A stretch of 64,000 nt of DNA from Promethearchaeota archaeon (GCA_019057865.1 JAHLWP010000006.1:1-64000); one strand, 5' to 3'. Positions 51 through 40,940 are shown, numbered from the stretch's first letter. The notes: a model not told the origin generated them from the sequence alone. Translations and numbers: made by a program.

Positions 51-1928
51 ATGAGCCATAAAAAGAAAAATAAAGAAAGGGCTCTGCCTTTATGTAGTTC
101 AGACATGGATAAAATAGTTGCCCATGGAGCTGTTAATAATCAAAATAATTATTCGGAGGATAAAATCCAAGAATTAAAACAAAGTAAAAATCTTATGAAA
201 AATTACACGGGTAGAAAGATTATATTTGATAATGAATATTTTGGAAAATTTAAAAAAAATGTAGCTATCATTACTGACCATCTATTTGTTGAAGATAAGA
301 ATAAGAAAAAAATATATAGAAAATCTTTAGAATTATTTAATTTTGTAGTAAAAAATGGGTTGGATCCTTCAGATTTAGAAGTTAAAAGTGCTGGAGTCTT
401 ATCAATTGGCTTTTTTTATTTTTCTTTGCTTTTTTATGATTATAAAAAGATAAAAAATGATGTTCTTACATATAGTACAATATGTCGTTCTTTAGGTAAG
501 GATTTACAAAAAATTGGTATTTCAAACTGCAAATCCAGAAATTTAGGAATAGTCTCAAAATTTTTACCAGAAAATTTAAGAAAGAAATATAAAGAATTTT
601 ATTCTAAAAGACTTTATACTGGAAGATTATCCTTTGAAGAATTTATTAATTTTATCAAAGATTTAGGATTAAAAAAGACAGGAATCGAAGGAAAAGTACT
701 GAACCCAGACTTTAATTACAATCAACTAACCATAAATGGTTACCAAGGATTAACATCGGAAGAATATTATAATTTAATCGAAAATAAAAAAGGGACGGAA
801 GTTCGATTTCCGGTATGGTGTGGTAAACATGATCATGCCCCATGGAAAGGCATCCTTTCCAACTTATTACAAGAAAAATGGTGTCGTAAATGTGCGGACG
901 AAAAAAAGATTACTTTCTCACTTGAGAGACTAAAAAAAATTGCACTGAAACGCGGACGTGAAGATACTGGTGTAGAAGGTAAAATATTAAATTTTCAAAA
1001 TAGTGATATAGAACTCACTCAAAAGACATATGATAGATTGACTGCAGAAAGAACGCCAAGCAAAACCCACTTCTGGTGGAGTTGTTGTATTAAAGGACAT
1101 TCCTCATGGAGAACTACACCAGGTCATATATTTTTTGACAAAACATGGTGTCCTATTTGTAAAAAAGGTCTATATACACATACAGAATTAATTAAATTGG
1201 CGAAAATACGAGGTCATGAAGAAACTGGAGTAGAAGGCAAAATATTAGACTTGAAAAATTGTGATAAAGAACTCACTTTAGAGACATATAATAGATTAAC
1301 AGTAAATAAAAAGGCAAGTGAAGTCTCATTTTGGTGGAGCTGTGAAAGAAATCACTCTCATTTCAGGAATAATCCTGCAAATATTAGAAGAGGTCAATGG
1401 TGTCCAATCTGTTCAAGTGCTGAAGGAAAATTTGAAAAAATAATTAGAGCTCAATTTGAAAAAGTCTTTAAAGTATTATTTCCAGAAAGATATCTACGAA
1501 ATTTAAAACTTAAATATACGAAAATGGACATTGGCTTGGATTTAACTAAAGAAAAAGATAAGATTATGTTTATGGGATATAAAGTTAATTTTAGCAATCT
1601 TCCTCAGTTTAAAATCTATAGTGGAAAAATGAGATTTGATGGGTATGCGGAAATTGTGATCAGTGGGAAATTAATTAAAATTGCCTTTGAATATAACGGT
1701 ATTCAACACTATGAATTTCCAAATTATTGGTTTGGAAACTCTATTAGGGGTTATAGATCGTGGTTAAAATATATTGAAAGAGATCAGGTTAAGAAAGAAA
1801 TTTGTAAATTGAATGATATATATCTTATAGAAATTCCGTATTATATCGATTTTACATTAGAGCACCCAGAAAAAATTCAATCTTATATCATAAATCAATT
1901 TGAATTAATTACTGGGTTAAAGTTATAA
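51..1928 (+). CDS. Putative free-standing endonuclease: three tandem Zn-ribbon repeats plus C-terminal PD-(D/E)xK (Vsr/DUF559-like) nuclease domain
   Basis: Three 86-96 aa repeats (TGxEGK.L...WxC..xH..W/F...WCxxC; TG codons at 678, 966, 1224). C-terminus has RFDGY...IAFEYNGIQHY...RDQVKKEICKLNDIYLIEIPY. Confidence 0.75.
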   Translation: MSHKKKNKERALPLCSSDMDKIVAHGAVNNQNNYSEDKIQELKQSKNLMKNYTGRKIIFDNEYFGKFKKNVAIITDHLFVEDKNKKKIYRKSLELFNFVVKNGLDPSDLEVKSAGVLSIGFFYFSLLFYDYKKIKNDVLTYSTICRSLGKDLQKIGISNCKSRNLGIVSKFLPENLRKKYKEFYSKRLYTGRLSFEEFINFIKDLGLKKTGIEGKVLNPDFNYNQLTINGYQGLTSEEYYNLIENKKGTEVRFPVWCGKHDHAPWKGILSNLLQEKWCRKCADEKKITFSLERLKKIALKRGREDTGVEGKILNFQNSDIELTQKTYDRLTAERTPSKTHFWWSCCIKGHSSWRTTPGHIFFDKTWCPICKKGLYTHTELIKLAKIRGHEETGVEGKILDLKNCDKELTLETYNRLTVNKKASEVSFWWSCERNHSHFRNNPANIRRGQWCPICSSAEGKFEKIIRAQFEKVFKVLFPERYLRNLKLKYTKMDIGLDLTKEKDKIMFMGYKVNFSNLPQFKIYSGKMRFDGYAEIVISGKLIKIAFEYNGIQHYEFPNYWFGNSIRGYRSWLKYIERDQVKKEICKLNDIYLIEIPYYIDFTLEHPEKIQSYIINQFELITGLKL

Positions 1929-2154
1929 ATTAATTAACCACTCGATCACAGAGATGTGAAGATATCTTCAATCCAATACGAATAAAATTCCATATTAATT
2001 AGGTATCTTATAGATTAAACGTAGCATCCTGAATTTGCATTGTTGTATAATAAAAATATAGCCCAAAAGCTTTCTTTTTTTTATTTAATAAATTAAATTC
2101 ATAAATTTAATAAAATCATGAAAATTTTATAATGTAAAAAAAAAGGTATATCTT

Positions 2155-3256
2155 ATGGCTTATAGCATTAAAGATGATGTTAATGAAATAATCAATCGTC
2201 TCGAAAAAGGAGATATCTCATTTAAAGAAAAAACAATCTTAGTTACTGGAGGGGCGGGATTTTTGGGCTCATGGGTGTGTGATGTTCTTGTTAAACAGGA
2301 TGCATATTGCATCTGTTTAGACAATTTATCATCAGGACAACCTGAAAACATATTGCACCTTATGGAAAAAGACAAATTTCGTTTTATTAACCACGATATT
2401 TCTTATCCAATATATTTTGGAATGAGTTATCATCCATTGGGCATTTGCATAGGGGATATTAAAAAAATAGATATCGTTATGCATATGGCAAGTCGAGCAT
2501 CTCCATTTGAATTTACAAAAGAACCAATATCAATATTAAGAAGCAATACTCTGGGAACTTTGAATACTTTAGGAATTGCGAAATTCCATAATGCCATGTT
2601 TTTTTATACAAGTACCTCTGAAGTCTATGGAAATCCACCAAAAGAAGCTGTTCCTACACCAGAAAGTTACTTTGGGCACGTAAATCTTGCTTAAGGTTTC
2701 CTACAAGAACGTATACCCAGTAGGTCCCAGAAGTTGCTATGATGAGTCTAAAAGAGCTGGAGAAGCATTTATTAAAGCTTATGAACTTCAACATCAAATG
2801 AGAACAAAAATCGTGAGAATTTTTAATACAGCAGGACCTAGAATACGATATGGACCTGAATTTGGAAGAGTTGTTCCCAACTTCATACACCAAGCCATAC
2901 ATGATGAAGATATTATTGTTTTTGGAGATGGGTCACAAACTAGATCTTTTATCTATGTAGTCGATGAGATTGAAGGGATACTTAAAATGGTACATAAAGA
3001 TGAAGCCATTGGAAATGTTATAAATTTAGGTAATAATAAGGAATATACAATTCTAGAATTAGCTAATATCATAAAAGATTTAACGAATTCTAACTCAAAA
3101 ATTATATTTAATCCATTACCTATTGATGATCCAGTCCGAAGGTGTCCTGATATACAAAAAGCAAAGGAAATTCTCAATTGGGAACCAACAACATCTTTAA
3201 GGGACGGTTTGAAAAAAACTATTGCTTGGTTTAAAGATAATGAGCGTAAAAGTTAA
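2155..3256 (+). CDS. UDP-glucuronate decarboxylase-like NAD-dependent epimerase/dehydratase (extended SDR), spliced: exons 2155-2683 + 2715-3256, 356 aa
   Basis: LVTGGAGFLGS, HMASRASP and STSEVYG lie in the first ORF; GPRSCYDESKR, RIFNTAGPR and GDGSQTRSF lie in the second. Removing 31 nt gives YFGHVNPVGPRSCYDESKR. Confidence 0.9.
2684..2714 (+). other. Putative BHB-type mRNA intron (31 nt)
   Basis: Central helix ACGT(2678-81)/ACGT(2709-12), bulges AAA and ATA, inner stem TCTTG/CAAGA, outer TGGG/CCCA with one unpaired C. Canonical cut positions restore the frame. Confidence 0.85.
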
Positions 3257-3764
3257 GAGTAATGAAAAAACAAATCTAAAGAACAGTAATAAACAGTTTG
3301 AGATTATCTTAAAAATCTGTTTAATTATCGGTATTATTATAATTTCAGGTTTTATATTCTATTACATTTCTACTCCTGAGCCCGGATATGTTACTTTTGG
3401 AATTTTAAATGAGAATCAAAAGGCTGAAGATTATCCTACCGAAGCGGCTGTTAATGAGAGTGTTTTTTTTTATGTCACTGTTGAAAATCATATGAAACGA
3501 GATTTTTCATTTCACTTAGAGATTTTTAAAGGTGATAATGAAACGATTTTAAATTCAACAGGATTATTTGGCGCTAAATCATATTTCAATACAACTACAG
3601 TACATTTAAACCATAAGGATTTTTGGATGTCTAATATTTTAAATGTTTCATTTTTACAACCTGGTGCAAATCAAAGAATTATAGTAATATTATGGGAAAT
3701 TCCTTATAGTGGAATAAGAAGATACGTTTCTTCGCTATACTTATGGTTAGAAATTTTGCCATGA
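3240..3764 (+). CDS. DUF1616-like membrane-anchored protein
   Basis: N-terminal TM helix, then FGILNENQKAEDYP...FYVTVENH...LYLWLEI. ATG 3240 preferred over TTG 3222. Confidence 0.7.
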   Translation: MSVKVKSNEKTNLKNSNKQFEIILKICLIIGIIIISGFIFYYISTPEPGYVTFGILNENQKAEDYPTEAAVNESVFFYVTVENHMKRDFSFHLEIFKGDNETILNSTGLFGAKSYFNTTTVHLNHKDFWMSNILNVSFLQPGANQRIIVILWEIPYSGIRRYVSSLYLWLEILP

Positions 3765-3804
3765 AAAATTAAAATTTATAAAAAAAAGAAAGGGTTAATT
3801 AATT

Positions 3805-4305
3805 TTATTCATAAGAGAGAATACCCATGTTAACATATACTTGTCCATCATTCCACCATTCTTGATTAAAAAATGTTACTTTTTCAACAGTTTTGCCATC
3901 AGTTAAATCATATATCTTTAATACATATACTGGTCCAGTATCATATAATTTAAAAGTACTAGATCCACCTTCATAATATGATACCGTGATTTTCGTATAA
4001 CCTCCGCCATTAAAATAAATTTGTAATAAAAGCCAAGGATCAAGGTCATCTGGATTATTATCCGCAAAAGTAATATAAAAATTAAGCACATAAATAAATA
4101 AAAATAATTCAGTTCCCTTGATTTTATATGCATCATATTGTACATCGGGATAGTAGAAACTCTCAAGGTCTCCAGCTAAATGTATTCCTTTTACTTTCAC
4201 AACTGAAGTCGGGTAAAGATTAAATACACCAAGAGCATTAACAGTAGATAAAAGGAGCATTCCACTCAAAAATGTAACAATACCTAAAAAATATTTTTTC
4301 TTAAT
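3805..4305 (-). CDS. Secreted hypothetical protein (probable ATT start)
   Basis: The frame extends upstream of the TTG at 4269 to ATT 4305, giving the signal peptide (M)KKKYFLGIVTFLSGMLLLSTVNA. AAGGTAG lies upstream. Confidence 0.6.
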   Translation of the reverse strand: MKKKYFLGIVTFLSGMLLLSTVNALGVFNLYPTSVVKVKGIHLAGDLESFYYPDVQYDAYKIKGTELFLFIYVLNFYITFADNNPDDLDPWLLLQIYFNGGGYTKITVSYYEGGSSTFKLYDTGPVYVLKIYDLTDGKTVEKVTFFNQEWWNDGQVYVNMGILSYE

Positions 4306-4556
4306 ATTAAACTACCTTTTTTTATTAACTCTTTTTCTTAAAAAATGAATTACTATTGAACTTTTATAAAGATTTTTTTTTGTAAGATTTTTGAAAAAAA
4401 AAAAGAAGTCAACTTCATATTTAAACTTTTTTGTCCAAAAGTAACATTAAAATCTAATCAAAAAAGATGATATTTTGAAAGGTTTTTTGATCAATTATTT
4501 ATTAATCCCTCATTATTCCAAAATGTTAAATTTTAGCCATTCTGAAGTTTTTTTCT

Positions 4557-4871
4557 GTTAATGAAACTATTACATTTTATTTAACTGTCGATAATTATTT
4601 AAATAAAGAATTTACATTTCGGATTAAAATAAAGAAAGGAGATTATAATACTGTACTCAGTTCAATTGGCTCAAATGGTACTCTTGACTCTATAATTGGC
4701 AATTTTACTTTAAAAAATAACGAGAATTGGATTTCTGAAAAATTAAATGTTTCTTTCTCAGAAGTAGGGGCAAATCAAATAATTATTACTGAATTATGGC
4801 AGATCACTAACGATGATGAAGAAAAATTTTATAATATCTTGTGGCTCAGATTGAATATTACACTAATTTAA
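4557..4871 (+). pseudogene. Orphan 3' half of a DUF1616 paralog (no ATG/GTG/TTG start)
   Basis: VNETITFYLTVDNYLNKEFTFRIKIKKGD...LNVSFSEVGANQIIITELW...LWLRLNI aligns with the C-terminal half of 3240-3764. Confidence 0.8.
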
Positions 4872-6238
4872 CCACCTATTATTTGAACATCCTTTATTCT
4901 AACAAAGGGTGCTTGGAAAGATCCATAGATTTTAAATTCTTTAGATACAGCATTTATATTTTTGAAGAGATCTAAAAGATTAATACCAAACATAGTTTTA
5001 TTTAATGGTTCCTTAATTTCTCCATTTTTAATTAAATTTCCATGCAAAATAAGCCCTGAAAAGTCTCCGGTTGAAATATTAGGAGAATCTCCAGTATAAT
5101 CTAAAAGAATTCCCTCTTTAATATCATTTATTATTTCATCTTTAGAGAGATTTCCTGGTTTTAAAATGAAATTAGAAATGCCAATAGAAGGTATAGAACT
5201 ATAAGAATTTCGAGATGCGTTGCCGGTACTTTCAATATTATCTTTTCCAGCAGTATAACTGTTATGTAATAATCCTGTTTTAAGAAATTTACCTCTTTCA
5301 AATATCTTTTTATTTTTGCAAGGAACTCCTTCACCATCAAATGATGAAGAACCAGGAGCACCATCAATTAAGGCATTATCTTCAATATCTAAATAGTTTG
5401 ACCCTATTATTTCTTCTCTCTTCCCGATCAAAAAGCTTCTTTTATACTGGAAAGTTTCTGCATTAATAGCAGATGCTATTGGATTTAAAATTAAATTAAT
5501 TGTACCAAAAGGTGTTAAAAGCAAAGTTATTTTCATACTTTTTATTCTTATCCTATTTAAATTTCTTTTAGCTTTTTCTAAAGCATTTGATGCAATTTCT
5601 TTTGCATTAATCTCGCTTAAAGTTCTCATAGATTGCCAATCATAGCCAAAAGAAGTTTCATTACTAACTTTATCTTTAACAATTATATTTGAAGATATTG
5701 AGCAACTGGTCTCTTTTCCAGTTATAAATAAACCATTTGAGTTAAAAATATTGGTTTTAGTATAATTGGATAGAAAATTACCAGATTGAGAAATCGCTAA
5801 TTCATCTTTACTGCATACTTGAATTAAATCTTCAACATATTTTAGAGATTCGTCAATTTCTAAATTTTTTAAATTATTATCGTATAAATTCTTCACATCT
5901 GGGTATTTATTATATTGATTAGGTAAGTTCTTAAAATCAAGGTCTATAGTGCCAGCATTCATCATCTTAAGAGCAATACTTATCATCTTTTCAATTGATT
6001 TTTTTTTTACTCTATTAGTAAAAGCAAACCCTAGGGAACCTTTTTTATTAATTACTCTAATAGCAGTCCCATAATCATCTCCTACCTCACTATTTTTAAC
6101 AGAATTTTCTTCAATTTCAATATTAATATAATTATTTTTCCCAAAGAATATTTCAGCACATTTCAGATCAGAGTTACTTCGCTCGGCTAATTTTAATCCA
6201 TAATTTGCCAAGCTATAAACATCAGAATTATGGTCCAT
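4868..6238 (-). CDS. pmbA: TldD/PmbA family protein (PmbA/TldE-type)
   Basis: FDGEG, STGNASR, NISTGDFSG; no HExxH; paired with tldD. Confidence 0.85.
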   Translation of the reverse strand: MDHNSDVYSLANYGLKLAERSNSDLKCAEIFFGKNNYINIEIEENSVKNSEVGDDYGTAIRVINKKGSLGFAFTNRVKKKSIEKMISIALKMMNAGTIDLDFKNLPNQYNKYPDVKNLYDNNLKNLEIDESLKYVEDLIQVCSKDELAISQSGNFLSNYTKTNIFNSNGLFITGKETSCSISSNIIVKDKVSNETSFGYDWQSMRTLSEINAKEIASNALEKAKRNLNRIRIKSMKITLLLTPFGTINLILNPIASAINAETFQYKRSFLIGKREEIIGSNYLDIEDNALIDGAPGSSSFDGEGVPCKNKKIFERGKFLKTGLLHNSYTAGKDNIESTGNASRNSYSSIPSIGISNFILKPGNLSKDEIINDIKEGILLDYTGDSPNISTGDFSGLILHGNLIKNGEIKEPLNKTMFGINLLDLFKNINAVSKEFKIYGSFQAPFVRIKDVQIIGG

Positions 6239-7684
6239 TTAATTTAAACCCCCAACTGTTATATCCTCAGTTCTTATATATGGTCCACCATCACATACTC
6301 TAATACTTTGACCACCTTTTCCACAGATTCCATCTGAATAATTCATAGTTTTTCCGATAGCAGAAATTTTATTAAGTACTTCAAGAGTCAAGCCAGAGAG
6401 GGATACGTCTCGCATTAATTCTCTTTTTTCTCCATGCTCAATTTTATATGAGAGTTTACATTTAAATTGAAAATTTCCAGTAGTAGGATCTGTGTAACCA
6501 TATTGAAAATCTTCACATAATACCCCGTTTTTTGTATCCTCAATTATTTCTTCATATTCCCAATCTTTTGGTACTAAATAAGTAAAACCCATCCTAACTT
6601 GGGGTCTTGAACTACATGAATTTGCCCTACCATGCCCATTAGATGGAACTGCCATTCTTGAAGATGTTTCTAAACTGTGTAAATAGTTTCTTAATATACC
6701 ATCTTCAATTATTATTGTTTTTTGCGAAGGAGTTCCCTCATCATCAGTAAAATAACTGCCAAATAATTCATAGGGCAAATTAAATTTTTTGCCTTGATTC
6801 ATAGTCGGACCATCGATAATTTTTATATCATCCATAGCAACTTTTTTTCCAATTTTTCCTTCTAATATGCTTTCTTTATTTAAAACTAAATCTGCTTCAC
6901 AAGCATGCCCAAAAGCTTCATGTATAAAAGTTCCTGTTAATTTTGGATCCATTATAACGGTAAATTTACCTCCAACTGGAGAATTTGCATTTAGTAAGTC
7001 TACTGCTTCCTTAGCTGTTTTTTCAGTCAAATTATTTGCTCCTTCGGTTTCACTTATTTCAAAACCTCCAATTCCTCCTATAGAATTTATGGATCTTTGA
7101 AGGATACCTTTCTCTTTGGCATAAATTAAACTAAATAACCTTAAAAATGATAAATCTTGAACAATATGGTGCCCAAATGAACTAAAAATCAAATCTTGGG
7201 AGTGCCCATCCAAATATAAAGTATGAGTATTTTTTATTTTCGGTGAATATTCTGAGGCGATTTTCTCATGACGCTTTACTATTTGTATTTTTTCATCAAT
7301 GCCAATATCCTCTAATCTTTTTTTACAAGTAATTTTAAAATTTTTAATTAAGGGGTCTCTATTTCTAATTTTAAATTTATTTTTACATAAAGATTCTGAT
7401 AATTTAGCTAATTTTACTGCTTTTAAAAATCCATTAATTATAGTGTTCCTATTTGGATTTTTTAGAGCATTAAAACCCCAACCTCCATTGACAAAAGTCC
7501 TAATTCCGCACTCGATAATTTCATATGACGATATTTCCTTGCTTTTTTGGTCAGTAAAGTCTAGATTAGTCCCAGTTTTCACTCCAATTCGAATATCCCA
7601 GTAATCAATTTTATCTTTAGCTATTTTTTGTAATTCGTAAGTTAATTTTTCATCAGCAATTTTTAAATCTTCTGCGATATCCAA
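6239..7684 (-). CDS. tldD: TldD metalloprotease
   Basis: HEAFGHACEAD, DDEGTP, SNGHGRA, CGKGGQ. Confidence 0.9.
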   Translation of the reverse strand: MDIAEDLKIADEKLTYELQKIAKDKIDYWDIRIGVKTGTNLDFTDQKSKEISSYEIIECGIRTFVNGGWGFNALKNPNRNTIINGFLKAVKLAKLSESLCKNKFKIRNRDPLIKNFKITCKKRLEDIGIDEKIQIVKRHEKIASEYSPKIKNTHTLYLDGHSQDLIFSSFGHHIVQDLSFLRLFSLIYAKEKGILQRSINSIGGIGGFEISETEGANNLTEKTAKEAVDLLNANSPVGGKFTVIMDPKLTGTFIHEAFGHACEADLVLNKESILEGKIGKKVAMDDIKIIDGPTMNQGKKFNLPYELFGSYFTDDEGTPSQKTIIIEDGILRNYLHSLETSSRMAVPSNGHGRANSCSSRPQVRMGFTYLVPKDWEYEEIIEDTKNGVLCEDFQYGYTDPTTGNFQFKCKLSYKIEHGEKRELMRDVSLSGLTLEVLNKISAIGKTMNYSDGICGKGGQSIRVCDGGPYIRTEDITVGGLN

Positions 7685-7792
7685 GATAATCTAATTGATT
7701 GTTTTAATTTAAATAAGAATAATTAACCAAGGTGTTTAAAAAAGATTGTTTAAATATCCATGGTTTTTAAAAAGGATTATTAATAATAACTT

Positions 7793-8023
7793 TTAAATTT
7801 GAGTGTAAAAATTAGAAAACCCCTTATCTTCCATTTTATTCTTCAATTCTTTAATAATTGTAATTGCTATTTTAGTAGAACAGTTTTTAGTAAATTTTAG
7901 AGATTTTTTAATAAGAAATGATCGATTACATTTCCAACATTTTTTAGTTTTAATTATTCTTGTTGAATAGAACCATTCACCACAATGATAACACCGAAAA
8001 AAATAGAATTTCTGATTATACAT
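7793..8023 (-). CDS. Small Zn-ribbon protein (DUF1922-like)
   Basis: FRCYHCGEW...KKCWKCN. Confidence 0.6.
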   Translation of the reverse strand: MYNQKFYFFRCYHCGEWFYSTRIIKTKKCWKCNRSFLIKKSLKFTKNCSTKIAITIIKELKNKMEDKGFSNFYTQI

Positions 8024-8214
8024 TCCATAATATAATTTAAAGTATAATTTATAATGGTTTAAAGATTAGTAGTTTTCTAATTTTTTTTATCAATTAATAA
8101 GAATGATTTTTTATTGCTTTTCATCTCAAATGAAATATTATTAGTTAATAAATATCTAATAAAAAAGATAATATTACTATCTTTCATTTTTTCAATTAGG
8201 GAAAGTAATATTAG

Positions 8215-9585
8215 ATGAGAAAAGAAATGGATCATAAATTTATTCACCCAATTGAGACACGCTATCGAACTGAGATAGCTGCTCTTTTTACCGAAGAAAA
8301 AAAATTAGAAAATTGGTTAAAAGTAGAAGCTGCATTAGCTAGGGTACATGCAAAGCTTGGTAATATTCCAACAGAAGCTGCTGAAGAAATAAGTAAAAAG
8401 GCAAATATTAAATATGTTAAAGTTGAAAGAGTTAAGGAAATAGATAGACAAATACACCACGATTTGATGGCAATGGTTAAGAGTTTAGCTGAACAATGTG
8501 AAGGTGATGCTGGAAAATATATTCATTTAGGAGTTACCAGTTATGATATTGAAGATAGTGCTATGGGATTACAGTTAAAAGCGGCATTAAATTATATTAG
8601 AGATTCTCTGAAAAATTTATTAAAAGAATTATTAAGAATTATTGCTGAAAAAAAGAACCTAGTCTGTATTGGACGAACACACGGTCAACATGCAGTGCCT
8701 ACTACATATGGAATGCGGTTTGGAATATGGGCATATGAAATTGATAGACATTTGGATCGTATTTTAGAAGTTTTAGATCGTATCTCGTATGGTAAAATGT
8801 CTGGTGCTGTGGGTACAATGGCTAGTTTTGGAAATAAAGGAATAGAAATACAAAATAACGTTATGAAAGAATTAGGTTTAAATCCTGTGCTTTTAGCCAA
8901 CCAAATTGTGCAAAGGGATAGGCATGCTGAAGTTTTGCTTTTAACTGCTTTAATTGGACAGACCCTTGCTAAGATAGCCCGAGAAAACCGGATTTTACAA
9001 CGAAATGAAATAGCAGAAATGTTTGAACCCTTTAAAAAAGAACAAGTTGGAAGTTCTACAATGCCTCATAAGAGAAATCCTCACAAGTCAGAGAGAATCT
9101 GTAGTTTAGCAAGAATTATTAAATCTAACGTTATTCCTGCATTGGATAATATAGTGTTAGAAGACGAGAGAGATATAACAAATTCTGCTTCTGAAAGGGT
9201 GATTTTTGCAGAAAATTTCATATTATTGGATTATATGATTAAAGAATTAAACCGTAATCTTGAAGGAATTGAATTCAACGAAAGTAAAATAGAAGAAAAT
9301 CTTAATCTTACTAAAGGTGCTTGTTTATCTGAAAGGGTTATGGTTGAGTTAGTTAAAAGAGGAATAGGAAGACAAGAAGGACATGAAATTTTAAGAGAAG
9401 CTGCAATAGTTTCAAGGAATGAAAATAAATTTATAAAGGATATTTTATATGAAAATCAAATAATCAGTAAACAGTTTTCTAAGGAAGAATTAGATGATTT
9501 ATTGGATCCACATCAATATATTGGGACAGCGGTCGAGCAAACTGTAAATCTTTTGAAAATTCTAAAGAAAAAATATAATTGGTAA
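8215..9585 (+). CDS. purB: Adenylosuccinate lyase
   Basis: GRTHGQHAVPTT, GSSTMPHKRNP. Confidence 0.95.
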   Translation: MRKEMDHKFIHPIETRYRTEIAALFTEEKKLENWLKVEAALARVHAKLGNIPTEAAEEISKKANIKYVKVERVKEIDRQIHHDLMAMVKSLAEQCEGDAGKYIHLGVTSYDIEDSAMGLQLKAALNYIRDSLKNLLKELLRIIAEKKNLVCIGRTHGQHAVPTTYGMRFGIWAYEIDRHLDRILEVLDRISYGKMSGAVGTMASFGNKGIEIQNNVMKELGLNPVLLANQIVQRDRHAEVLLLTALIGQTLAKIARENRILQRNEIAEMFEPFKKEQVGSSTMPHKRNPHKSERICSLARIIKSNVIPALDNIVLEDERDITNSASERVIFAENFILLDYMIKELNRNLEGIEFNESKIEENLNLTKGACLSERVMVELVKRGIGRQEGHEILREAAIVSRNENKFIKDILYENQIISKQFSKEELDDLLDPHQYIGTAVEQTVNLLKILKKKYNW

Positions 9586-9594
9586 ATAAAAATA

Positions 9595-10776
9595 ATGGCT
9601 GAAAATAATAATTTATACTCACAATTGGGAGTTTCATCCAAAAAAGAAGATTTACACGAAGCAATTAAAGATGTTGATAAAGGACTTTTTCCAGGAGCTT
9701 TTTGCAAAATTGTTGAAGATATTGCAGGTAAAAAAGATTATTGTTCCATTTTCCATGAAGATGGAGCAGGCACAAAATCAAGTTTAGCATATATGTATTA
9801 TAGGGAAACTGGGGATTTATCAGTTTTTAATGGTATAGTTCAGGATGCAATTGTTATGAATATTGATGATATTTTGTGTGTAGGAGCTACAGGAAATATT
9901 TTTTTATCTAACACAATTGCAAGAAATGCTAAATTTATTACTGGGGATATAATTTCAACTATTATTAAGGAATATGAATCCTATAGTAAAAAATTATCAT
10001 CACTCGGTTTAAAAATAATAACTTGTGGTGGAGAAACAGAAGATTTAGGAGATCTAGTTAAAACTTTATCAATTTTTGCTTCAATTTTTACCAGAATGAA
10101 AAAGGAAGATGTAATTGATGCTAATAATATCAGTAAATCCGATATAATAATAGGCTTGGCTGGTTTTGGGAAAGCATCTTATGAAGATGAATACAATACC
10201 GGGATTGGAAGTAATGGATTAACATTAGCAAGACATGGAACACTTAGTCATGATTATTATAAGAAATATCCAGAATGCTATGATCAAAATACTGATAAGG
10301 ATTTGATTTTTTTTGGTAGGTATAAGTTAACTGATATGATAAACGAGATTAATTTAACAGTAGGAAAGGCTCTCTTATCTCCAACAAGAACTTATGCGCC
10401 TGTATTAATAGAAGTTTTAAAGAACTATAGAAAAGATATTCATGGTTTAATTCATAATACTGGTGGAGGACAAACCAAAAGTCTAAATTTTGGTAAAAAT
10501 ATAAAATATGTGAAGAATAATCTTTTTCCTCTTCCTAAAATTTTTCAAATAATTCAACAATCTTCTGAGACTAATTGGAAAGAAATGTATAGTGTGTTTA
10601 ATATGGGTCATAGATTGGAATTGTATTGCGATGAGTCAATAGCAAAAGAGATTATTAATATTGCTAAAAAGTTTGATATTGAAGGGAAGATTATCGGACA
10701 ATGTGAAAAATCCCCTATAACAGATAAAAATATTATTGAAATACAATCCGAATTTGGTTCTTTTAATTATAGTTAA
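9595..10776 (+). CDS. purM: Phosphoribosylformylglycinamidine cyclo-ligase (AIR synthase)
   Basis: GVSSKKED, DGAGTKS, GGETED, FNMGHRLE; adjacent to purB. Confidence 0.85.
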   Translation: MAENNNLYSQLGVSSKKEDLHEAIKDVDKGLFPGAFCKIVEDIAGKKDYCSIFHEDGAGTKSSLAYMYYRETGDLSVFNGIVQDAIVMNIDDILCVGATGNIFLSNTIARNAKFITGDIISTIIKEYESYSKKLSSLGLKIITCGGETEDLGDLVKTLSIFASIFTRMKKEDVIDANNISKSDIIIGLAGFGKASYEDEYNTGIGSNGLTLARHGTLSHDYYKKYPECYDQNTDKDLIFFGRYKLTDMINEINLTVGKALLSPTRTYAPVLIEVLKNYRKDIHGLIHNTGGGQTKSLNFGKNIKYVKNNLFPLPKIFQIIQQSSETNWKEMYSVFNMGHRLELYCDESIAKEIINIAKKFDIEGKIIGQCEKSPITDKNIIEIQSEFGSFNYS

Positions 10777-10788
10777 CATGATTATTTT

Positions 10789-11745
10789 ATGACTGAATCA
10801 TATGATGTAATCTGTATAGGGGCTGCTCTAGTGGATATGATTGCTAGAGTTATAAGGCATCCTGTAGATGATGATGAAGTCTATGTATCAGATCTAGAAT
10901 TATTAGCTGGAGGTGCTGCTGCAAATACGGCTTATGTATGTGCTAAATTAGGTTTGTTAACGGCTTTTCTTGGAAAATTAGGTCTTAATGATACATTCGG
11001 TAATAAAATAATAAAAGATTTCAACGAAGTTAAAGTAGTAACAACATTAATTAAATATTCAAATAAATATGGCACTGGATCTGCTTATGTAGCTCTAAAT
11101 CGAGAAGGTGATCGGAGAATATATGCGTATAGTGGTGCAGCTAATTATCTTTCTAGAGATAACATTATAGAAGGAGAATTATCCTCAACAAAAGCAATCT
11201 TTTTAAGCAGTTTAAAAAATTTGGAGCCATTTATTAAAGCAGCAAAGATTGGGAGAAAAAATAAGATTCCTGTAATATTAAATCCAGGTATGTTAATAAT
11301 TGACCAAGACCTTGAAAATATAAAAATGTTACTTGAATATATTGATATTCTTATTTTATCTCAGAAAGAGTTTTCGACCCTTATGAACATCCAAGAACGT
11401 GAGTTAAACTTAAAAACTATTGAGGGAACTATGAAAAAACTTATCAAATTAGGCATTAAAGTCATCATAGTTACAAGAGGTGAGATTGGAGCTTTATTAT
11501 ATACAAATCTCGATTTTGAATTAATACCTTCTATTAAAGTTAGAAACGTAGTAGATACAACTGGTGCTGGTGATGCTTTTTCTGCTGGTTTTATTTATGG
11601 TTTTGTTCAGAATTTAAGTTTTGAGTTTGAAGCCCTCAAAAAAAATGTAAAAATTGGAAATTTCATTGCTGGAAAATGTATACAGAAATTAGGAGCAAGA
11701 AATGGAATCCCTTTTAAAGAAGATTTGAAATTAGTTTTTCCCTAA
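10789..11745 (+). CDS. PfkB family carbohydrate/nucleoside kinase
   Basis: GGAAANTA, DTTGAGDAFSAG. Confidence 0.9.
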   Translation: MTESYDVICIGAALVDMIARVIRHPVDDDEVYVSDLELLAGGAAANTAYVCAKLGLLTAFLGKLGLNDTFGNKIIKDFNEVKVVTTLIKYSNKYGTGSAYVALNREGDRRIYAYSGAANYLSRDNIIEGELSSTKAIFLSSLKNLEPFIKAAKIGRKNKIPVILNPGMLIIDQDLENIKMLLEYIDILILSQKEFSTLMNIQERELNLKTIEGTMKKLIKLGIKVIIVTRGEIGALLYTNLDFELIPSIKVRNVVDTTGAGDAFSAGFIYGFVQNLSFEFEALKKNVKIGNFIAGKCIQKLGARNGIPFKEDLKLVFP

Positions 11746-11820
11746 ATACAAATAATAAAGTTTTTAATTTTATAATTTAATAATTTTTTATTCAAATACT
11801 ATACTTTAAAATGAGAATCA

Positions 11821-12891
11821 ATGGGGAAACCAATATATAAAAAAAAAAAAACTATTCTTAAAGAAAGATTTAGATTTCTTTTTGTAGAAGTTATTTGGTA
11901 TTTTATAATTATTTACGTATTAGTCTTTCTTTCTTTAGCTTCATTAGAGTTCTTTGCGGATAAAAATTCCGTTTCTTATGGGATCATATTTTATATTGAA
12001 CGAGCTATATTGATATTTATAGCAGTACCGATTGCTTTTTTCATTTCTAAGTTTCTATCACAACCTCATAAAAGAGAGATTATTATTGAAGAGGATATTT
12101 CTCCATTCAAAGGATTTTTTATGCTTTATAAAGTAACTAAAAAGAATTATAAATATCAATTTTTGTATGGATTTTTAATATATTTCCTGGTATTTTTACC
12201 CTTGGACTTTTTTACTTACCTTTTGTTACCTGATATGATTAGCTATCAAGCTTTTTCTTTAGGTTCTAACGCGTCAAACTCTTATTTATTTAGAGACTAT
12301 TTTACATTTTTAATATCTGTTATTATAATTCAATTATGTGTTTCTTTTTCAGAAGAAACAATTTTTAGAGGTTTTATTACTAAATCGGGGAGTGAACATA
12401 TAAATAGAATATCTGTTGTTATAATAGCTTCTCTTTCTTGGGGATTAGGTCATTTTGCTTATTATTTTGATCCTATAAGTGGAGCTTATCCATTTTGGTT
12501 TCCCTTCATTTGGTTTACACAAGCATTCATAATTGGAATAATTTTGTCACTTCTAGTTTTGAGAAGGAAATGGATATTTCCAGTAATTCTCGCGCATGCT
12601 TTAAATAATATAATTTCAGCACATACTTTGTGGAATTCTTTAAAGGGAAATGATTTTACTAATATTGCTTTATTTCTTTATTGTCCGTTGCTAATTATAG
12701 GTATTGTATTATTTATATGGCAATTTCCAAGAATCAAAGAAGGTTTATCAATAGGATTCAAATTATTAAAAACTTATTTTAAAAGTGAAAGGGAATATGT
12801 TGATTCCATTGGTGATAAGTTATTTATGATCTTCATAGATTTGTTGATAGGTATAATTGTTTTTCTGGTGGGCTTTATGATTTTAATATAA
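11821..12891 (+). CDS. CPBP (Abi/CAAX) intramembrane metalloprotease
   Basis: EETIFRG, WGLGH, HALNN; multiple TM segments. Confidence 0.85.
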   Translation: MGKPIYKKKKTILKERFRFLFVEVIWYFIIIYVLVFLSLASLEFFADKNSVSYGIIFYIERAILIFIAVPIAFFISKFLSQPHKREIIIEEDISPFKGFFMLYKVTKKNYKYQFLYGFLIYFLVFLPLDFFTYLLLPDMISYQAFSLGSNASNSYLFRDYFTFLISVIIIQLCVSFSEETIFRGFITKSGSEHINRISVVIIASLSWGLGHFAYYFDPISGAYPFWFPFIWFTQAFIIGIILSLLVLRRKWIFPVILAHALNNIISAHTLWNSLKGNDFTNIALFLYCPLLIIGIVLFIWQFPRIKEGLSIGFKLLKTYFKSEREYVDSIGDKLFMIFIDLLIGIIVFLVGFMILI

Positions 12892-12906
12892 AGGAGTGAT
12901 ATTTCT

Positions 12907-13443
12907 ATGAAAATTGGGATTTTAGCTGATACTCATATTACAATTAATGATGACCCAAAAAAAATTGAGTTATTAATATCCCAATTAAACCAGATTTTTA
13001 ATGATGTTGATGAAATTATCCATGCTGGCGATCTATGTGAAAAATTTTTTTTAGATGAACTTAACAAAATTGCTCCAACGAAATGTGTTAAGGGAAATTT
13101 GGACAAAATTGAGGATTTGGAAGATTTTATTAAATTTTCAGTTGGTTGTTATAATATAGGAGTAATCCATCAATTACCCCAAAATCTTGAAGATTTTATT
13201 AGAAAACACGATCTAAATGTATTAATTCATGGTCATGATCATCAACCGATCATAGAAGGTACATCCTATAATACACTTCTTTTAAATCCGGGTTCACCAA
13301 CAAAACCAAAAGCACCTCCTCCAAAAGCGGGATTTGAACCACCAATTGCAAGACCAAGCGTGTTAATTTTAAATATCGATGAGAATGATATTATATCAAC
13401 ATTTATAATAAATTTGGATAGTATAAAAAATCAAATAAGTTAA
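12907..13443 (+). CDS. YfcE/MJ0936-family phosphodiesterase
   Basis: ADTH, HAGD, KGNLD, HGHDH, NPGS. Confidence 0.9.
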   Translation: MKIGILADTHITINDDPKKIELLISQLNQIFNDVDEIIHAGDLCEKFFLDELNKIAPTKCVKGNLDKIEDLEDFIKFSVGCYNIGVIHQLPQNLEDFIRKHDLNVLIHGHDHQPIIEGTSYNTLLLNPGSPTKPKAPPPKAGFEPPIARPSVLILNIDENDIISTFIINLDSIKNQIS

Positions 13444-13573
13444 AAATAAATATAAAATAGTTCATATTATTTATACAAAAATACTTTATGAAAGAGAATC
13501 TTAAATATTAGAATAATTCTCAGTTTTTCTTTTAGAATAATGTTAAATTAACTATAAAAGAGAGTGTATTAAT

Positions 13574-13972
13574 TTGGTTAGTAGATTGGAAATGGTTCTG
13601 AAGGAACTTAATGAAAATGGTAATTTTCGAGCATCATTATTTTCCACAGCAACAGGATTAGTTTTAGCATCTCAAAAAGCTGAAGATATTGATGAAAGAG
13701 TAATAGCTGCTATGGGTTCCCTATTAAGCGATGCAGCTTATAAAGCTGCTGAAGAAATGAATTTATCAGAAGTCCAAAGTATAAAAATTAAATATAAAGA
13801 TGATTATATTATCTGTCGAAATATTATTATTGAAGAGAGCAACACACAATTTATATTAGCAGTATTGAGTGTATTACCAGAATCTAATGATGTCGAAAAA
13901 TATTATGACCAATTGCTTGATTGGGCTGTAGATAATAGCTCCTCAGACCTTGAAAAGTTATCGACAATTTAA
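13574..13972 (+). CDS. Roadblock/LC7-domain protein
   Basis: GLVLAS...DERVIAAMGSLL pattern; 132 aa. Confidence 0.75.
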   Translation: MVSRLEMVLKELNENGNFRASLFSTATGLVLASQKAEDIDERVIAAMGSLLSDAAYKAAEEMNLSEVQSIKIKYKDDYIICRNIIIEESNTQFILAVLSVLPESNDVEKYYDQLLDWAVDNSSSDLEKLSTI

Positions 13973-14117
13973 TAATTGAATTTTTATAAAACAGTTGTAA
14001 ATTTTTTCTATTTTTAACATTGAATTCACTTTATTTTCTATAACAATTCACTTTATATTTTTTAGATTTAAAATTATCTTTGTATTATTTAATTTTAAAA
14101 AGTTATGTGTAAAGAAC

Positions 14118-14225
14118 ATGAAAGCAGCTTATATAGAAAAACATGGAAATTTAGATCAAATTCAAATTGGAGAACTCGAAAAGTTTTACTGGAGATTTGA
14201 TAAATTTTATTTTATTAATTGGTAA
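14118..14225 (+). pseudogene. N-terminal fragment of an MDR-family (quinone oxidoreductase/Zn-dehydrogenase) gene
   Basis: MKAAYIEKHGNLDQIQIGEL resembles MDR N-termini; similarity ends after about 20 codons. Confidence 0.55.
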
Positions 14226-14874
14226 AATTTAAAAACTTTTTCAGAAATTTGGTCCTCATAACCCCAATAAAAATGGTCTGCTCCTGAAATAATTTCATAT
14301 TGCTTAGGTTTAATGTAATACTTATAATGGTCAAAAAAGTTATCAAATGAGGCAACATTATCTCTGTCTCCTTGAAGAAAAAATTTAGGTTTTTCTGATT
14401 GGGAGAGTTCCTTGTAATTAATTCCCATTGAATCCCAAGGAAAAGAAATAGCTATATAACCTATTACTTTATCTGAATGATTAACAGCAGAACAACCTAT
14501 TGCAGCTCCATAAGAATAACCACAAATAATGATTTTTTTTAAATATTTCTCATTTACTAAAAAATTGATACAAGCTTGGACATCACTTAATTCTCCTCTT
14601 CCATTAGAATGAGTACCAGTTGATCTTCCAACAGCTCGGAAATTAAACCTGATACACGAAATATCATTTTTGATGAAAATATTAAAAATTGCAGATACAA
14701 CATTATTATACATATTCCCCCCAAATATTCCCTTTTTAAGTTTTAAATCCTTAAAAATTGAGGATGTGGGTGGACTAATAAAACAGAATAAGACTCATCA
14801 GAAGTTGATTGGTAGTATTCAGCTTCAAGTTTTACATCCTTATTAGTAATAAAAAATTTTTCAGTTTTAACCAT
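14207..14874 (-). CDS. Alpha/beta hydrolase (COG2945-like), spliced: exons 14874-14759 + 14726-14207, 211 aa
   Basis: Exon 1 reads MVKTEKFF...LLVHPHP; exon 2 reads FGGNMYNNVV, RFNFRAVGRSTG, GYSYG, GDRD, GADHF. Removing 32 nt gives HPHPQFGGNMYNNVV. Confidence 0.9.
14727..14758 (-). other. Putative BHB-type mRNA intron (32 nt)
   Basis: Central helix TCCT/GGGA, bulges CAA and ATA, inner stem TTTTTAAG/CTTAAAAA, outer CCACCCACA/TTTGGGGGG (7 of 9 paired). Canonical cut positions restore the frame. Confidence 0.88.
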
Positions 14875-14927
14875 AAATAGAATAAAGAACTGTATCTTTA
14901 TTAAAATTTCTTACTAAACCAATTACT

Positions 14928-16850
14928 TCATGATATGTAGCTTTGACTTAAGCCACTAATATAATTCCCTTCCTGGGTTATCAATTTTTTTGAAGTATAA
15001 GACATTTTTTCTATTTTAACTTTATTGATTAAATTGATTGTATTATGCCTAAATAAGGAGTATAATATATTTAAAGTAGGTGTTGTAATGCCATGCTTAA
15101 TGATGTCAGTTAAAATTCTTAATAAGTAATTCTCAGAAATATTCTTTCCTTGGTAAAGTAATTTATGAATTGGAGATTCAATTAATCCCTTTATGTATAA
15201 GCTATGAAAAGTGTAATTATATAATTCTTTCAATTCTATATTTACTTTTTTCAGCCAAGGGTTTAAATAAAGAATACTTTTTTTTCCTGGTGCTTTATCT
15301 TTTGGCATTGGAGTTTCAGGAACAAATTTTCTTAGTAACTCATAATTTCTTTTCCCCATTATATGTATAATATATCGATCATGCCATTTTGGATTTTTTT
15401 TACTTAATTCAATTTTTTCTAAGTTTGTTATAATTCCAAATCTTTTAAGTAGAAAATTTATACCAAAAACTAATCTCGGAGAGGAAGTATATAGTCTTAC
15501 TTTTATGTTTCTCATATTATTTGAATTCCTTATCTGTTCTTTTATTGTGGCATCACCTAGAATGAACCCTCTAAGAAATCCTTTGACACAATCTAATGGG
15601 GCATTATATATGAATGGAGGAATTTCCTTTTGATGTGCTAAAACAGGTTTCAATCCTATACCCTTTGTAAAAATACTCTTTACTAAAAGAGATTCATTTC
15701 TTAATTTGAAAGCATTTTTATAGTTTTCTCTTTTTTCTTGTTCCAATCGAAATTTAATTCCTAGGACTCTCTTTACTTTTTCGGATACTTTCATAATTAT
15801 ATTTTTATCTGTGCCACATGTAAGATTTATGATATTCATCGAACCCTCTGCGATATATTGACCTAAGATAAATCCAAGGTCAAAATCTTTTTTAATAAAA
15901 CGAGGAATATTAAATAAGTTGCTCTTTCCAAATGTTATGTATTCTTTTCCATTTATTTCATAAACAAATCCACAATCTTTCAAATCTAATGGATTATCAT
16001 TTACTAATACCTTAAGCTTTCTAGGCATTAAGATTCTATCTCCACTCTTTAATTTGAAAGCAGGAATTTTATAAATATTTAACTTATCATCTATACTGTA
16101 AATAGATTGATTTTGACTTAATAAAATATCATCAAATCTAGAAGATATTTTAATTATAGTGTTGCAAATTTTCTTACTAAAGCCTTCTACAGGCATTAAA
16201 CAAGAAATTCCATCAGATGACATGCTATAAGTACTAATATTATAATTATTCATTAATTCTTGACTTTCATATAACTTGTAAAGATTCAAGTCTTCAAGAT
16301 ATACTAAATAAAATTGATAAGGGTATTGATCATCTTGCTTTTGCTTTGGTATCATTGAATTTTTTAAAGATTTGATTGCTAATTTATTTTTAATTAATAG
16401 TCTTTCATATTGCTTAACTCCAAGATATGACCTTAATCTCTTCCTCATCAGACTTAGAGAAGGGACATTTTCTTCATCATAATATTTACTCATAAATCTA
16501 TGAGCTGTGATAAATGAGTGAAACTTTTTAACAAGCCAAATCCAATTTAAAATATCTTTTTTTGAAAATTTTTTATTGTTTTTTATCAAAGTTTTGATGT
16601 TTCCTTTATCAAACTCAATATTATCGTTATATTGATTAAAAGTATTAAGATCAACCTTTTTCGGTATAGTATTTACATTAATATCATCAAATTGATTTAG
16701 ATTTTCCTTGATTAATTTTACACCACAATTTATACAATAAAAAATTGGATCTTTATTTCCAGTAATTTCTTCGATCATTTTATTTGAAATGCTCCAACCA
16801 CATTCCAAACAATAATTTATTATTATATTTATAGAATTTTTTTCTAACAT
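14928..16850 (-). CDS. Free-standing intein-derived LAGLIDADG (DOD) homing endonuclease with N-terminal Zn ribbon
   Basis: CLECG...CINCG. Hint-like LKSGDRILMP. Block C FILGQYIAEGS, block E FLRGFILGDAT, block H TSSPRLVFGINFLLKRFGI. No terminal His-Asn and no C-extein. Confidence 0.8.
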   Translation of the reverse strand: MLEKNSINIIINYCLECGWSISNKMIEEITGNKDPIFYCINCGVKLIKENLNQFDDINVNTIPKKVDLNTFNQYNDNIEFDKGNIKTLIKNNKKFSKKDILNWIWLVKKFHSFITAHRFMSKYYDEENVPSLSLMRKRLRSYLGVKQYERLLIKNKLAIKSLKNSMIPKQKQDDQYPYQFYLVYLEDLNLYKLYESQELMNNYNISTYSMSSDGISCLMPVEGFSKKICNTIIKISSRFDDILLSQNQSIYSIDDKLNIYKIPAFKLKSGDRILMPRKLKVLVNDNPLDLKDCGFVYEINGKEYITFGKSNLFNIPRFIKKDFDLGFILGQYIAEGSMNIINLTCGTDKNIIMKVSEKVKRVLGIKFRLEQEKRENYKNAFKLRNESLLVKSIFTKGIGLKPVLAHQKEIPPFIYNAPLDCVKGFLRGFILGDATIKEQIRNSNNMRNIKVRLYTSSPRLVFGINFLLKRFGIITNLEKIELSKKNPKWHDRYIIHIMGKRNYELLRKFVPETPMPKDKAPGKKSILYLNPWLKKVNIELKELYNYTFHSLYIKGLIESPIHKLLYQGKNISENYLLRILTDIIKHGITTPTLNILYSLFRHNTINLINKVKIEKMSYTSKKLITQEGNYISGLSQSYIS

Positions 16851-17056
16851 TGTATTTTCTATATTAATTTTCTTTATATCTCATCTTGTTTCATAAAAAT
16901 TACAATTTTTACAAGTTTTATTTTTAAACAGTGTTATCAAACACTATAAAATAAAATTCTTTATATTTAAATAAAAAAAGAGAACATTAAGATTAACATA
17001 ATTTTATTTAATTTTTTATCTATAATAATAATACTACTTATAATTCTGCGATAAAA

Positions 17057-40489: not shown

Positions 40490-40940
40490 AAAATTAAAAA
40501 AAGAATTCACTTCATTTTTTATAAAATCTTTAATTCTATTCGGTCTGTTCATTTTCGGGCAGATCCAATATGGAAATTCAAAAAAGATAATTCCATTATG
40601 GTAGAGAAGATAGATTTTAAGAAGATCATTAATTATACCATTTAAAAACGAATCTAGTTCATTAATATTTTTATGAAAATAATTCGGAAAAATATAATGC
40701 TGAATTCCATTATATTCGAATGTTATCCATATGAAATTTTCGCTATGATAATTAAAGGGGGTATTAATTTCACGCTCAAGAAGAAAAATTTTATTATTTT
40801 TAATGGTAATTTTAATATAACCAATAGGGAACTGAATTTTTATTAGTTTTGAATCAATTTTCGTATAATCATCTTTAATTTTATCAACAATCTTCTGAAT
40901 TTGGAAAGCATCGAAAAGTTAAAATATGATGGATATCATT
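40490..40940 (-). pseudogene. Frameshifted relic of a PD-(D/E)xK nuclease homologous to the C-terminus of 51-1928
   Basis: WITFEYNGIQHYIFPNYF...DLLKIYL...IIFFEFPYWI (FEYNGIQHY at 40720-40694); FDAF motif upstream in another frame. Boundaries are approximate. Confidence 0.8.

Follow-up and report, generated by a model that had tools for sequence, protein, structure and literature searches.

How protein-coding genes acquire introns is a long-standing question, nowhere more pressing than in the archaeal lineage closest to eukaryotes. It is raised by the first 64,000 nucleotides (nt) of contig C75 (hereafter the window), which, going by the named sources of homologous proteins, belongs to a genome of the Promethearchaeota, the Loki-type Asgard archaea (G000; 4.26 Mb, 29% G+C, 87 contigs). 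The same layout occurs twice in the window: a homing-type nuclease gene is followed by a downstream host gene that is split by a bulge-helix-bulge (BHB) mini-intron. The two host genes, each of which is single-copy in G000, encode a UDP-glucuronate-decarboxylase-like protein (UXS) and an alpha/beta hydrolase. Both loci contain a mobile block of foreign origin that has its recombination edge at the intron site and decays to intron-only alleles. Regarding the mechanism, we favor the reading that each locus is a selfish homing cassette, consisting of a nuclease, exon 1, and a BHB mini-intron, which spreads by collaborative homing, and we assign this reading a probability of about 0.6. In the labels used below, G denotes genomes, L denotes fetched loci or contigs, and g1, g27, and g28 denote genera; G000 falls in g1, and its sister genome is G012.

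An initial annotation of the window had described both layouts, and every coordinate that it listed for the nuclease genes (51-1928 and 16850-14928), UXS, and the hydrolase checks out. Its assignment of both upstream genes to the homing-type nucleases was upheld by analyses of domains, catalytic residues, and folds. The features are:

51-1928, plus strand: P0001, a free-standing nuclease gene, 625 amino acids (aa), with three treble-clef zinc-finger repeats and a probable Vsr-like domain at residues ~480-625
2155-2683, plus strand: exon 1 of the UXS-like gene, the co-transferred part (Pfam Epimerase, profile positions 1-124)
2684-2714, plus strand: BHB mini-intron in UXS, 31 nt, boundary ambiguous by 1 nt (centroid fold and geometry test)
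2715-3256, plus strand: exon 2 of the UXS-like gene, the resident part (Pfam Epimerase, profile positions 135-240)
14207-14726, minus strand: exon 2 of the hydrolase gene, the resident part (Pfam Abhydrolase_11 from profile position 12)
14727-14758, minus strand: BHB mini-intron in the hydrolase gene, 32 nt, boundary ambiguous by up to 4 nt
14759-14874, minus strand: exon 1' of the hydrolase gene, cassette-borne, 38 codons plus 2 nt
14928-16850, minus strand: P0002, a free-standing two-motif LAGLIDADG nuclease, 640 aa, with an N-terminal zinc ribbon (Pfam LAGLIDADG_3, E 4e-13)
14727-16993, minus strand: the whole hydrolase cassette (nuclease, spacer, exon 1', and intron), 2.27 kb, where the sister genome has an exon 1 of 113 nt
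16994-16999, minus strand: remnant of the old hydrolase start, ATG and one codon

The limits of the block are sharpest at the hydrolase locus, at which a 53-nt gap separates the end of the P0002 open reading frame (ORF) from exon 1'. G000 and G012 are 94-97% identical outside the cassette; homology ends at 14726/14727 and restarts at 16994, the old start codon. Exon 2 of G000 is 95.3% identical to that of G012 at the nucleotide level up to base 14726. The encoded proteins are 94% identical over exon 2 and 51% identical over exon 1', and exon 1' gave no blastn match to G012. The gene is intronless in 51 of the 52 GTDB genomes of g1 that possess it. Among 29 g1 loci that were fetched, one of which (L032) was too short to show exon 1, 28 had a continuous gene with the QRPTase gene directly upstream and no nuclease. 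The carriers of the hydrolase intron found in g1 are G000 and the contigs L005 and L006, each of which has the nuclease.

Remains of the displaced exon are still visible in three of the loci. In L086, the old exon 1 survives in full upstream of the nuclease and ends in ...CCTCA at the 5' splice point, which is the exact position at which the initial annotation had placed the cut, and L006 retains the first 14 codons. Together with the start remnant in G000, these remains indicate that the cassette sits at the intron position with its own exon 1', and the displaced exon in L086 probably marks the point at which the recipient DNA was broken. The nuclease had initially been described as a neighbor of the split gene; it is adjacent, but the hydrolase unit has its own exon 1, which takes the place of the resident one, and it is seated within the gene at the position of the intron. 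Orthologues of P0002 in L005 (which is probably the same species as G000), L086, and L006 are 96, 55, and 46% identical to it, respectively, and each precedes an intron-bearing hydrolase gene. The introns of these three genes (32, 30, and 30 nt) interrupt the same codon and differ in sequence, with the BHB being retained. Among the 161 genomes of the class, an orthologue of P0002 was found in G000 only.

The introns themselves point to donors outside g1. The hydrolase intron of G000 is of the g28 type (86% identity to G118) and its exon 2 is of the g1 type (95% to G012), while the intron of L006 is of the g27 type (85% to G089) and its exon 2 is again of the g1 type (90% to G024). These foreign types indicate that two diverged LAGLIDADG cassettes carried introns into an otherwise intronless g1 gene. 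The hydrolase intron is present without a nuclease, with QRPTase directly adjacent, in 4 g27 and 23 g28 genomes, and 20 of these 27 loci were checked by sequence. Since the short intron is nuclease-free in these sister genera, it appears to be older than its link to the cassette.

At the UXS locus, the block is recognized by conflicting histories of the two exons. The UXS proteins of G000 and G012 are 98% identical over exon 2 and 82% identical over exon 1. In the exon-1 tree, all 28 intronless g1 alleles form a clade with 99% support that excludes every intron-bearing allele, and G000 groups with the other g1 carriers; in the exon-2 tree, the intron-bearing g1 alleles are scattered, and G000, G012, and G030 form a clade with support of 100/99.9. 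Monophyly of the five intron-bearing g1 alleles was rejected for exon 2 (difference in log-likelihood, 224; approximately unbiased [AU] test, p = 1.5e-5) and was not rejected for exon 1. This conflict indicates a common history of exon 1, the intron, and the nuclease, and a separate one for exon 2, which follows the genome. The first ~25 nt of exon 2 still show donor-type synonymous differences, and sequence comparison places the recombination boundary within ~25 nt of the intron. A copy of the old UXS exon 1 upstream of P0001 was looked for in G000 and G004 and was not found.

The initial annotation proposed that co-occurrence of intron and nuclease be examined at orthologous loci, and this comparison revealed a strong association. 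UXS is present in 129 genomes of the family; the intron interrupts the same codon in 14 of them, and ~115 are intronless (exon continuity was checked by sequence in ~30 and by open-frame length in the rest). An intact nuclease adjoins the intron-bearing gene in 4 of the 14 (G000, G100, G095, and G112), and remnants adjoin it in another 4, namely, a 130-aa C-terminal catalytic stub in G004, 46 aa in G101, 33 aa in G091, and the last 79 nt in G128. The locus thus presents a decay series from intact nucleases of 625-917 aa through a stub and fragments to clean absence. None of the ~115 intronless genomes has an adjacent nuclease; the only nearby match among them is a relative with 31% identity in G063, located 3.4 kb away beyond another gene. 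The resulting contrast (8/14 versus 0/~115; Fisher p ~2e-9) is overstated by the p value because the genomes are related and the counts are not phylogenetically independent. At the hydrolase locus, all four nuclease carriers have the intron. Furthermore, every P0001 relative examined (41-100% identity) adjoins UXS, which is the behavior of a site-specific element. An apparent second interruption of UXS in G152 was rejected as a scaffold gap of Ns with duplicated flanks.

Regarding the nature of the inserts, their removal joins the exons as ...YFGHVNPVGPRSCYDE... in UXS and ...HPHPQFGGNMYNNVV... in the hydrolase, as in the uninterrupted genes of relatives, and the two halves of UXS also cover consecutive positions of the GDP_Man_Dehyd profile (1-139 and 146-332). 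Read by hand and with predicted cuts marked by a caret, the layout is TTGGG-C-ACGT-AA^A-TCTTG...CAAGA-ACGT-AT^A-CCCAG for the UXS intron and CCCACA-TCCT-CA^A-TTTTTAAG...CTTAAAAA-GGGA-AT^A-TTTGGG for the hydrolase intron. Both follow the order helix, 3-nt bulge, 4-bp helix, 3-nt bulge, and helix, and the predicted cuts after the second bulge base coincide in both with the junction that restores the frame. Pairing in the outer helix of the window introns is interrupted by a 1-nt bulge or a single mismatch, and an A.C is found in the 4-bp helix of many UXS alleles (relaxed hBHBh'). A stricter initial criterion, which required a contiguous outer helix and a perfect 4-bp helix, passed 2/23 hydrolase and 4/15 UXS alleles, and was replaced by a fixed geometry with at least 3 of 4 central-helix pairs, at least 4 contiguous inner-helix pairs, and at least 4 of 6 outer-helix pairs. 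With this geometry, the frame-restoring position passes in 23/23 diverged hydrolase alleles and 13/15 UXS alleles; displaced placements on the same sequences, used as controls, pass in 1/483 and 0/330 cases, respectively.

The pairing is also maintained through sequence change. When 15 UXS introns were aligned, 87% of the cells were paired versus 42-53% for slid controls, and 5 pairs had changed on both sides, a number that was reached by 5 of 500 shuffles. The inner helix of the hydrolase intron is variable (TTTTT/AAAAA, TTTCTT/AAGAAA, TTAA/TTAA, and others) and nevertheless paired throughout. G000 encodes two EndA genes (PF01974) and one RtcB (PF01139). By geometry and compensatory change, both inserts are genuine archaeal BHB (tRNA-type) introns, the splicing of which is predicted.

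The initial annotation had also regarded these as the only mRNA introns that it found. In the window, this stands: a scan for BHB motifs combined with ORFs did not reveal another convincing split gene, and the best other candidate (58098-58142) was merely two adjacent genes. A genome-wide scan for BHB motifs and junction-spanning ORFs returned 79,702 raw candidates with no length peak above the background. It recovered both window introns, while its remaining hits in the window proved false; most of its candidates were adjacent genes, and it was too noisy to support an enrichment statistic.

Of the two enzymes, P0002 has the motifs ...LGQYIAEGS... and ...GFILGDAT..., and its acidic residues E335 and D433 are invariant in 7 family members. 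By the two-motif definition, it is a LAGLIDADG homing endonuclease, with cleavage being predicted from its sequence. A weak Pfam Intein_splicing match (E 0.022, below the cut-off) and homologies to intein-bearing proteins were also noted, and the C terminus (...SQSYIS) has no His-Asn and no C-extein. By these features and the zinc ribbon at its N terminus, P0002 is an intein-derived, free-standing enzyme and not an intein. In L086, the zinc-ribbon N terminus forms a separate 71-aa ORF (518-733) ahead of a 508-aa body (823-2349), beside poly-A runs; this split in the LAGLIDADG ORF reflects either gene decay through a frameshift or an error in sequencing.

P0001 gave a weak Pfam match to DUF4379 and no Pfam match in its C-terminal domain, and it matched PHROG families annotated as 'HNH endonuclease', 'homing endonuclease', and 'intron encoded nuclease' with E values from 8.5e-16 to 1e-6. 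The C-terminal domain has ~1,300 homologues, in which D530, E547, Q552, H553, D578, and K581 are conserved. A sequence search of the PDB with P0001 returned nothing relevant, and a Foldseek search of the PDB with the domain returned no match below E 0.001. The AlphaFold2 model of the domain has a pLDDT (predicted local distance difference test score) of 96.5, and its top folds are all Vsr-like, with Z scores below 8 that are only middling (the FASTKD4 RAP domain, 7.4; Vsr, 7.2; I-Bth0305I, 6.7; NGO0050, 6.0). On the basis of this model, the domain probably belongs to the Vsr-like/EDxHD branch of PD-(D/E)xK nucleases. I-Bth0305I (PDB 3r3p) resembles it in the fold, with 86 residues aligned, and in the D...E-x2-G-x-Q-H...D-x2-K pattern; it differs at ~14% identity and in being intron-encoded, whereas P0001 is free-standing and has treble-clef zinc-finger repeats that are presumed to bind DNA.

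The block, its edge, and its decay are most economically explained by collaborative homing, for which we infer nuclease cleavage, its position, immunity conferred by the intron, and splicing. The nuclease would cut an intronless allele of the host gene at or a few bases from the insertion site. The break would then be repaired from a cassette-bearing copy through exon 2 and the DNA beyond the nuclease gene, and the repair would copy in the nuclease, exon 1, and the intron together. A carrier would be protected because the intron and recoded flanking codons split the recognition site, and the gene would remain functional if the tRNA-splicing endonuclease of the host cuts the intron out of the mRNA and RtcB ligase seals the exons. 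The nuclease may in this manner exploit an older, more widespread intron-bearing allele and carry it into intronless lineages, later decaying while the intron stays.

Some elements of the initial proposal require revision. It had offered a route of intron gain; the nuclease is better described as spreading a pre-existing intron and then decaying, which leaves the first origin of the intron unexplained. It had also given predicted sequences for the intronless targets, and real intronless alleles differ from these sequences at several synonymous sites; at the same site, G012 reads ...TTTGGACATGTAAACCCTGTTGG... in UXS and ...CAYCCNCAYCCTMAATTTGGGGG... in the hydrolase.

A number of observations weigh against collaborative homing and should be set beside the above. 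The joint spread of nuclease and intron suggested at the outset holds in that the nuclease, exon 1, and intron are one recombining block, but the intron is not tied to the nuclease: the latter is absent in 27 of the 28 GTDB carriers of the hydrolase intron and in 6 of the 14 carriers of the UXS intron. Forcing G000 to group with its sisters in the exon-1 tree costs 24 log-likelihood units and is borderline (AU p = 0.068). All of the genomes compared are metagenome-assembled. On three metagenome contigs, an apparently intact nuclease lies beside an intronless UXS: P0025 in L091/L092 (60% identity), P0026 in L093/L094 (56%, in divergent orientation), and P0029 in L096 (41%). The site in L091 is identical to the joined exons of intron-bearing alleles and differs from ordinary intronless alleles at 4-5 synonymous positions. 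These contigs imply either that recoded flanks alone protect, that the enzymes are inactive or cut elsewhere, or that the intron is not an immunity device; the protective role of the intron is therefore putative, and recoded flanks might suffice. Moreover, split neighbors are absent beside the paralogues of P0001 and P0002 in G000 (905 aa and 449 aa on C41, 1237 aa on C80, and 888 aa on C75), beside the relatives in L008 and L075-L083, and beside a nuclease fragment in the window (40508-40744).

Among the alternatives, the one that survives best is that the nucleases cut elsewhere, for example in exon 1 or the upstream spacer, and that the intron is a linked co-conversion marker and not protective. 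It would accommodate the nucleases without an intron in L091, L093, and L096 and the wide persistence of nuclease-free introns, and the recoded flanking codons of intron-bearing alleles could provide immunity on their own. We nonetheless regard it as unlikely, since two unrelated nucleases share the same layout and the transferred tract ends at the last base of the hydrolase intron and within ~25 nt of the UXS intron. The displaced exon 1 of L086 stops at the splice point, as a break at this position predicts, and the GTDB genomes do not have a nuclease beside any intronless allele.

Less probable still is that the insert was once a single long BHB intron with an internal LAGLIDADG ORF, and that a later copy of exon 1' cut the spliced part to ~30 nt, in which case classical intron homing and not collaboration would be involved. 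The inserted DNA in L086 lies exactly between the old exon 1 ending in ...CCTCA and exon 2, P0002 is a LAGLIDADG protein of the intein or intron type, and archaeal rRNA BHB introns do bear such ORFs (PMC2738675). However, the nuclease-free mini-intron with QRPTase adjacent in the 27 sister-genera genomes suggests that the short form is older, the DNA that follows the old exon 1 in L086 is unlike the 5' half of the intron, and the corresponding exon-1 copy was not found at UXS (G000 and G004).

Vertical inheritance of an ancestral nuclease and intron, with repeated losses and no movement between genomes, is disfavored and in our estimation highly improbable. Intron-bearing alleles are clustered on the trees and not random, and the hydrolase intron appears to be vertically inherited inside g27 and g28; in g1, however, UXS carriers are scattered on exon 2 and grouped on exon 1, the difference between G000 and G012 at the hydrolase locus is confined to the block, and the introns of G000 and L006 are of types that belong to other genera. 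Equally far-fetched is the notion of domesticated DNA-binding proteins that are not mobile nucleases and stand beside split genes by coincidence: several paralogues do occur in unrelated, intron-free contexts, but the catalytic residues are conserved in both families, the distribution is patchy with truncated and fragmentary copies, and each nuclease family has one target gene, with which it is co-inherited together with a foreign exon and intron.

Collaborative homing, the preferred reading, was described in the cyanophage S-PM2, in which the free-standing nuclease F-CphI lies beside an ORF-less group I intron of psbA (Zeng, Bonocora, and Shub, 2009, as summarized in PMC6083498). For F-CphI, cleavage and immunity are reported as shown in that account (PMC6083498), and T4 mobE/I-TevIII represents a related case of trans-homing (PMC2790892). 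The likeness to the present loci is close: a free-standing nuclease gene adjoins a gene, the conserved site of which holds an intron too small for the nuclease; nuclease and intron spread jointly through gene conversion; and the proposed role of the intron is to keep the nuclease from cutting its own locus. On the other hand, the psbA intron is a self-splicing group I ribozyme in a phage, whereas the introns described herein are ~30 nt long, predicted to be spliced by proteins, and reside in a cellular Asgard archaeon. The hydrolase cassette also differs in bringing its own replacement exon and sitting at the intron position, and for the present loci cleavage and immunity are predicted.

Mobile elements that bring a piece of their host gene are found in fungal mitochondria, in which the endonuclease ORFs of the atp6 'hybrid genes' carry a replacement gene end. 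In these as well, the host-gene copy carried replaces the resident part, which is left as a decaying duplicate comparable to the old exon 1 in L086 and L006. The atp6 elements lack an intron and exchange the 3' end of the gene; in the hydrolase, it is the 5' exon that is exchanged, and a mini-intron connects it to the rest of the gene.

Among archaeal elements, mobile rRNA BHB introns are described as encoding LAGLIDADG enzymes of the I-DmoI and I-PorI types internally (PMC2738675). They resemble the present introns in being excised by the splicing endonuclease and moved as DNA by a LAGLIDADG enzyme with the intronless allele as its substrate, both of which are predicted here. They differ in that the introns of our loci, 30-33 nt long, do not contain the nuclease ORF, protein-coding genes are the targets, and one nuclease is not a LAGLIDADG enzyme. 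The BHB intron in the crenarchaeal cbf5 pre-mRNA is 16-44 nt long and patchy, with both gain and loss being inferred (PMC2738675); it is too short to encode a nuclease, and that account gives no mobility mechanism (PMC2738675). The cbf5 intron is thus alike as a short, patchy BHB intron in an archaeal protein-coding gene, but it has no linked nuclease, whereas the present introns occur in Asgard archaea, in other genes, and in nuclease cassettes.

Our literature search did not find a paper linking BHB mRNA introns to homing endonucleases, and a 2026 preprint on Asgard tRNA introns mentions neither homing nor mRNA. Published archaeal mRNA BHB introns essentially concern one gene, cbf5, with no mechanism of gain, and collaborative homing concerns phages and group I introns. 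Each half is already known, and the joining of the two appears to be new. Two unrelated nucleases at two loci represent a route by which introns of ~30 nt, with predicted splicing by proteins, may pass between genomes as DNA. The states before and after transfer can all be recognized, from sites that are empty through cassettes that are intact or decayed to alleles with the intron only, and sequences are known for the predicted enzymes as well as for their natural substrates with and without the intron; the system is directly testable and may yield new site-specific nucleases. A broader proposal is that the spread of mini-introns across Asgard genomes is generally driven by free-standing homing endonucleases from several unrelated families, which bring a mini-intron and part of the host gene into intronless protein-coding genes and then decay, leaving the intron behind. 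We advance this tentatively and consider it somewhat improbable at present; if true, it would go far to explain why mRNA mini-introns are so patchily distributed among the prokaryotes most closely related to eukaryotes.

Several further observations concern the nuclease families. The initial annotation had counted two intact homing-type nuclease genes in the window as the only ones, a statement that is corrected by a third, degraded member: on the minus strand at 40508-40744 lies a P0001-like Vsr-type domain (41% over ~80 aa), in the spacer between intact FGGY sugar kinase and SdpI-family genes. The 905-aa paralogue (L002:4792-7509, minus strand; C41:92792-95509 in G000) lies between intact UbiA and N6-methylase-like genes and consists of a P0002-like zinc ribbon (41% over 46 aa) joined to P0001-like repeats and a nuclease domain; this mixture of domains means that the two 'unrelated' families share a module. 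The 888-aa protein (L001:4631-7297, minus strand; C75:142631-145297) overlaps the stop of an upstream gene for a 941-aa AAA/HerA-like ATPase. Its C-terminal 460 aa form a complete unit of Hint and LAGLIDADG (Pfam Intein_splicing, profile positions 1-148), hardly any C-extein follows, and by this match the protein ends in an intein-like domain. A 25-nt 'intron' beside this P0002 paralogue (C75:145294-145318) was rejected as two overlapping adjacent genes.

Other observations concern the surroundings of UXS. In L091, two minus-strand ORFs of 102 and 187 aa with no Pfam match (4570-5545) lie between the P0025 gene and the intronless UXS; the nearly identical G128 locus, where the intron is present and the nuclease is reduced to a stub, has neither. 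In G004, ~4.4 kb of extra DNA (contig C164; L071:4632-9082), including a 605-aa minus-strand ORF without a Pfam match, separates a Ras-like GTPase gene from the truncated nuclease. In G000, a multi-copy repeat with copies 96-98% identical occurs at C31:72690-73051, C58:54535-54898, C66:163743-163929, C50:7385-7540, and C57:55629-55770. It starts ~65 nt before the position of the UXS start in the sister genome, and the copy at C31:72690-73051 is located at a contig end. The repeat ends the contig that is expected to join the start of the window, a position that places a repeated element just upstream of P0001.

Elsewhere in the window, Rfam detected a second tRNA beside tRNA-Val at 63233-63336 on the minus strand (104 nt, 48.9 bits), for which ARAGORN made no call and which is probably intron-bearing. 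A 233-aa ORF at 42046-42747, also on the minus strand, gave a faint match to the TNB zinc finger of the Cas12f/TnpB type (E 0.048) and may be a remnant of an IS200/IS605-type element.

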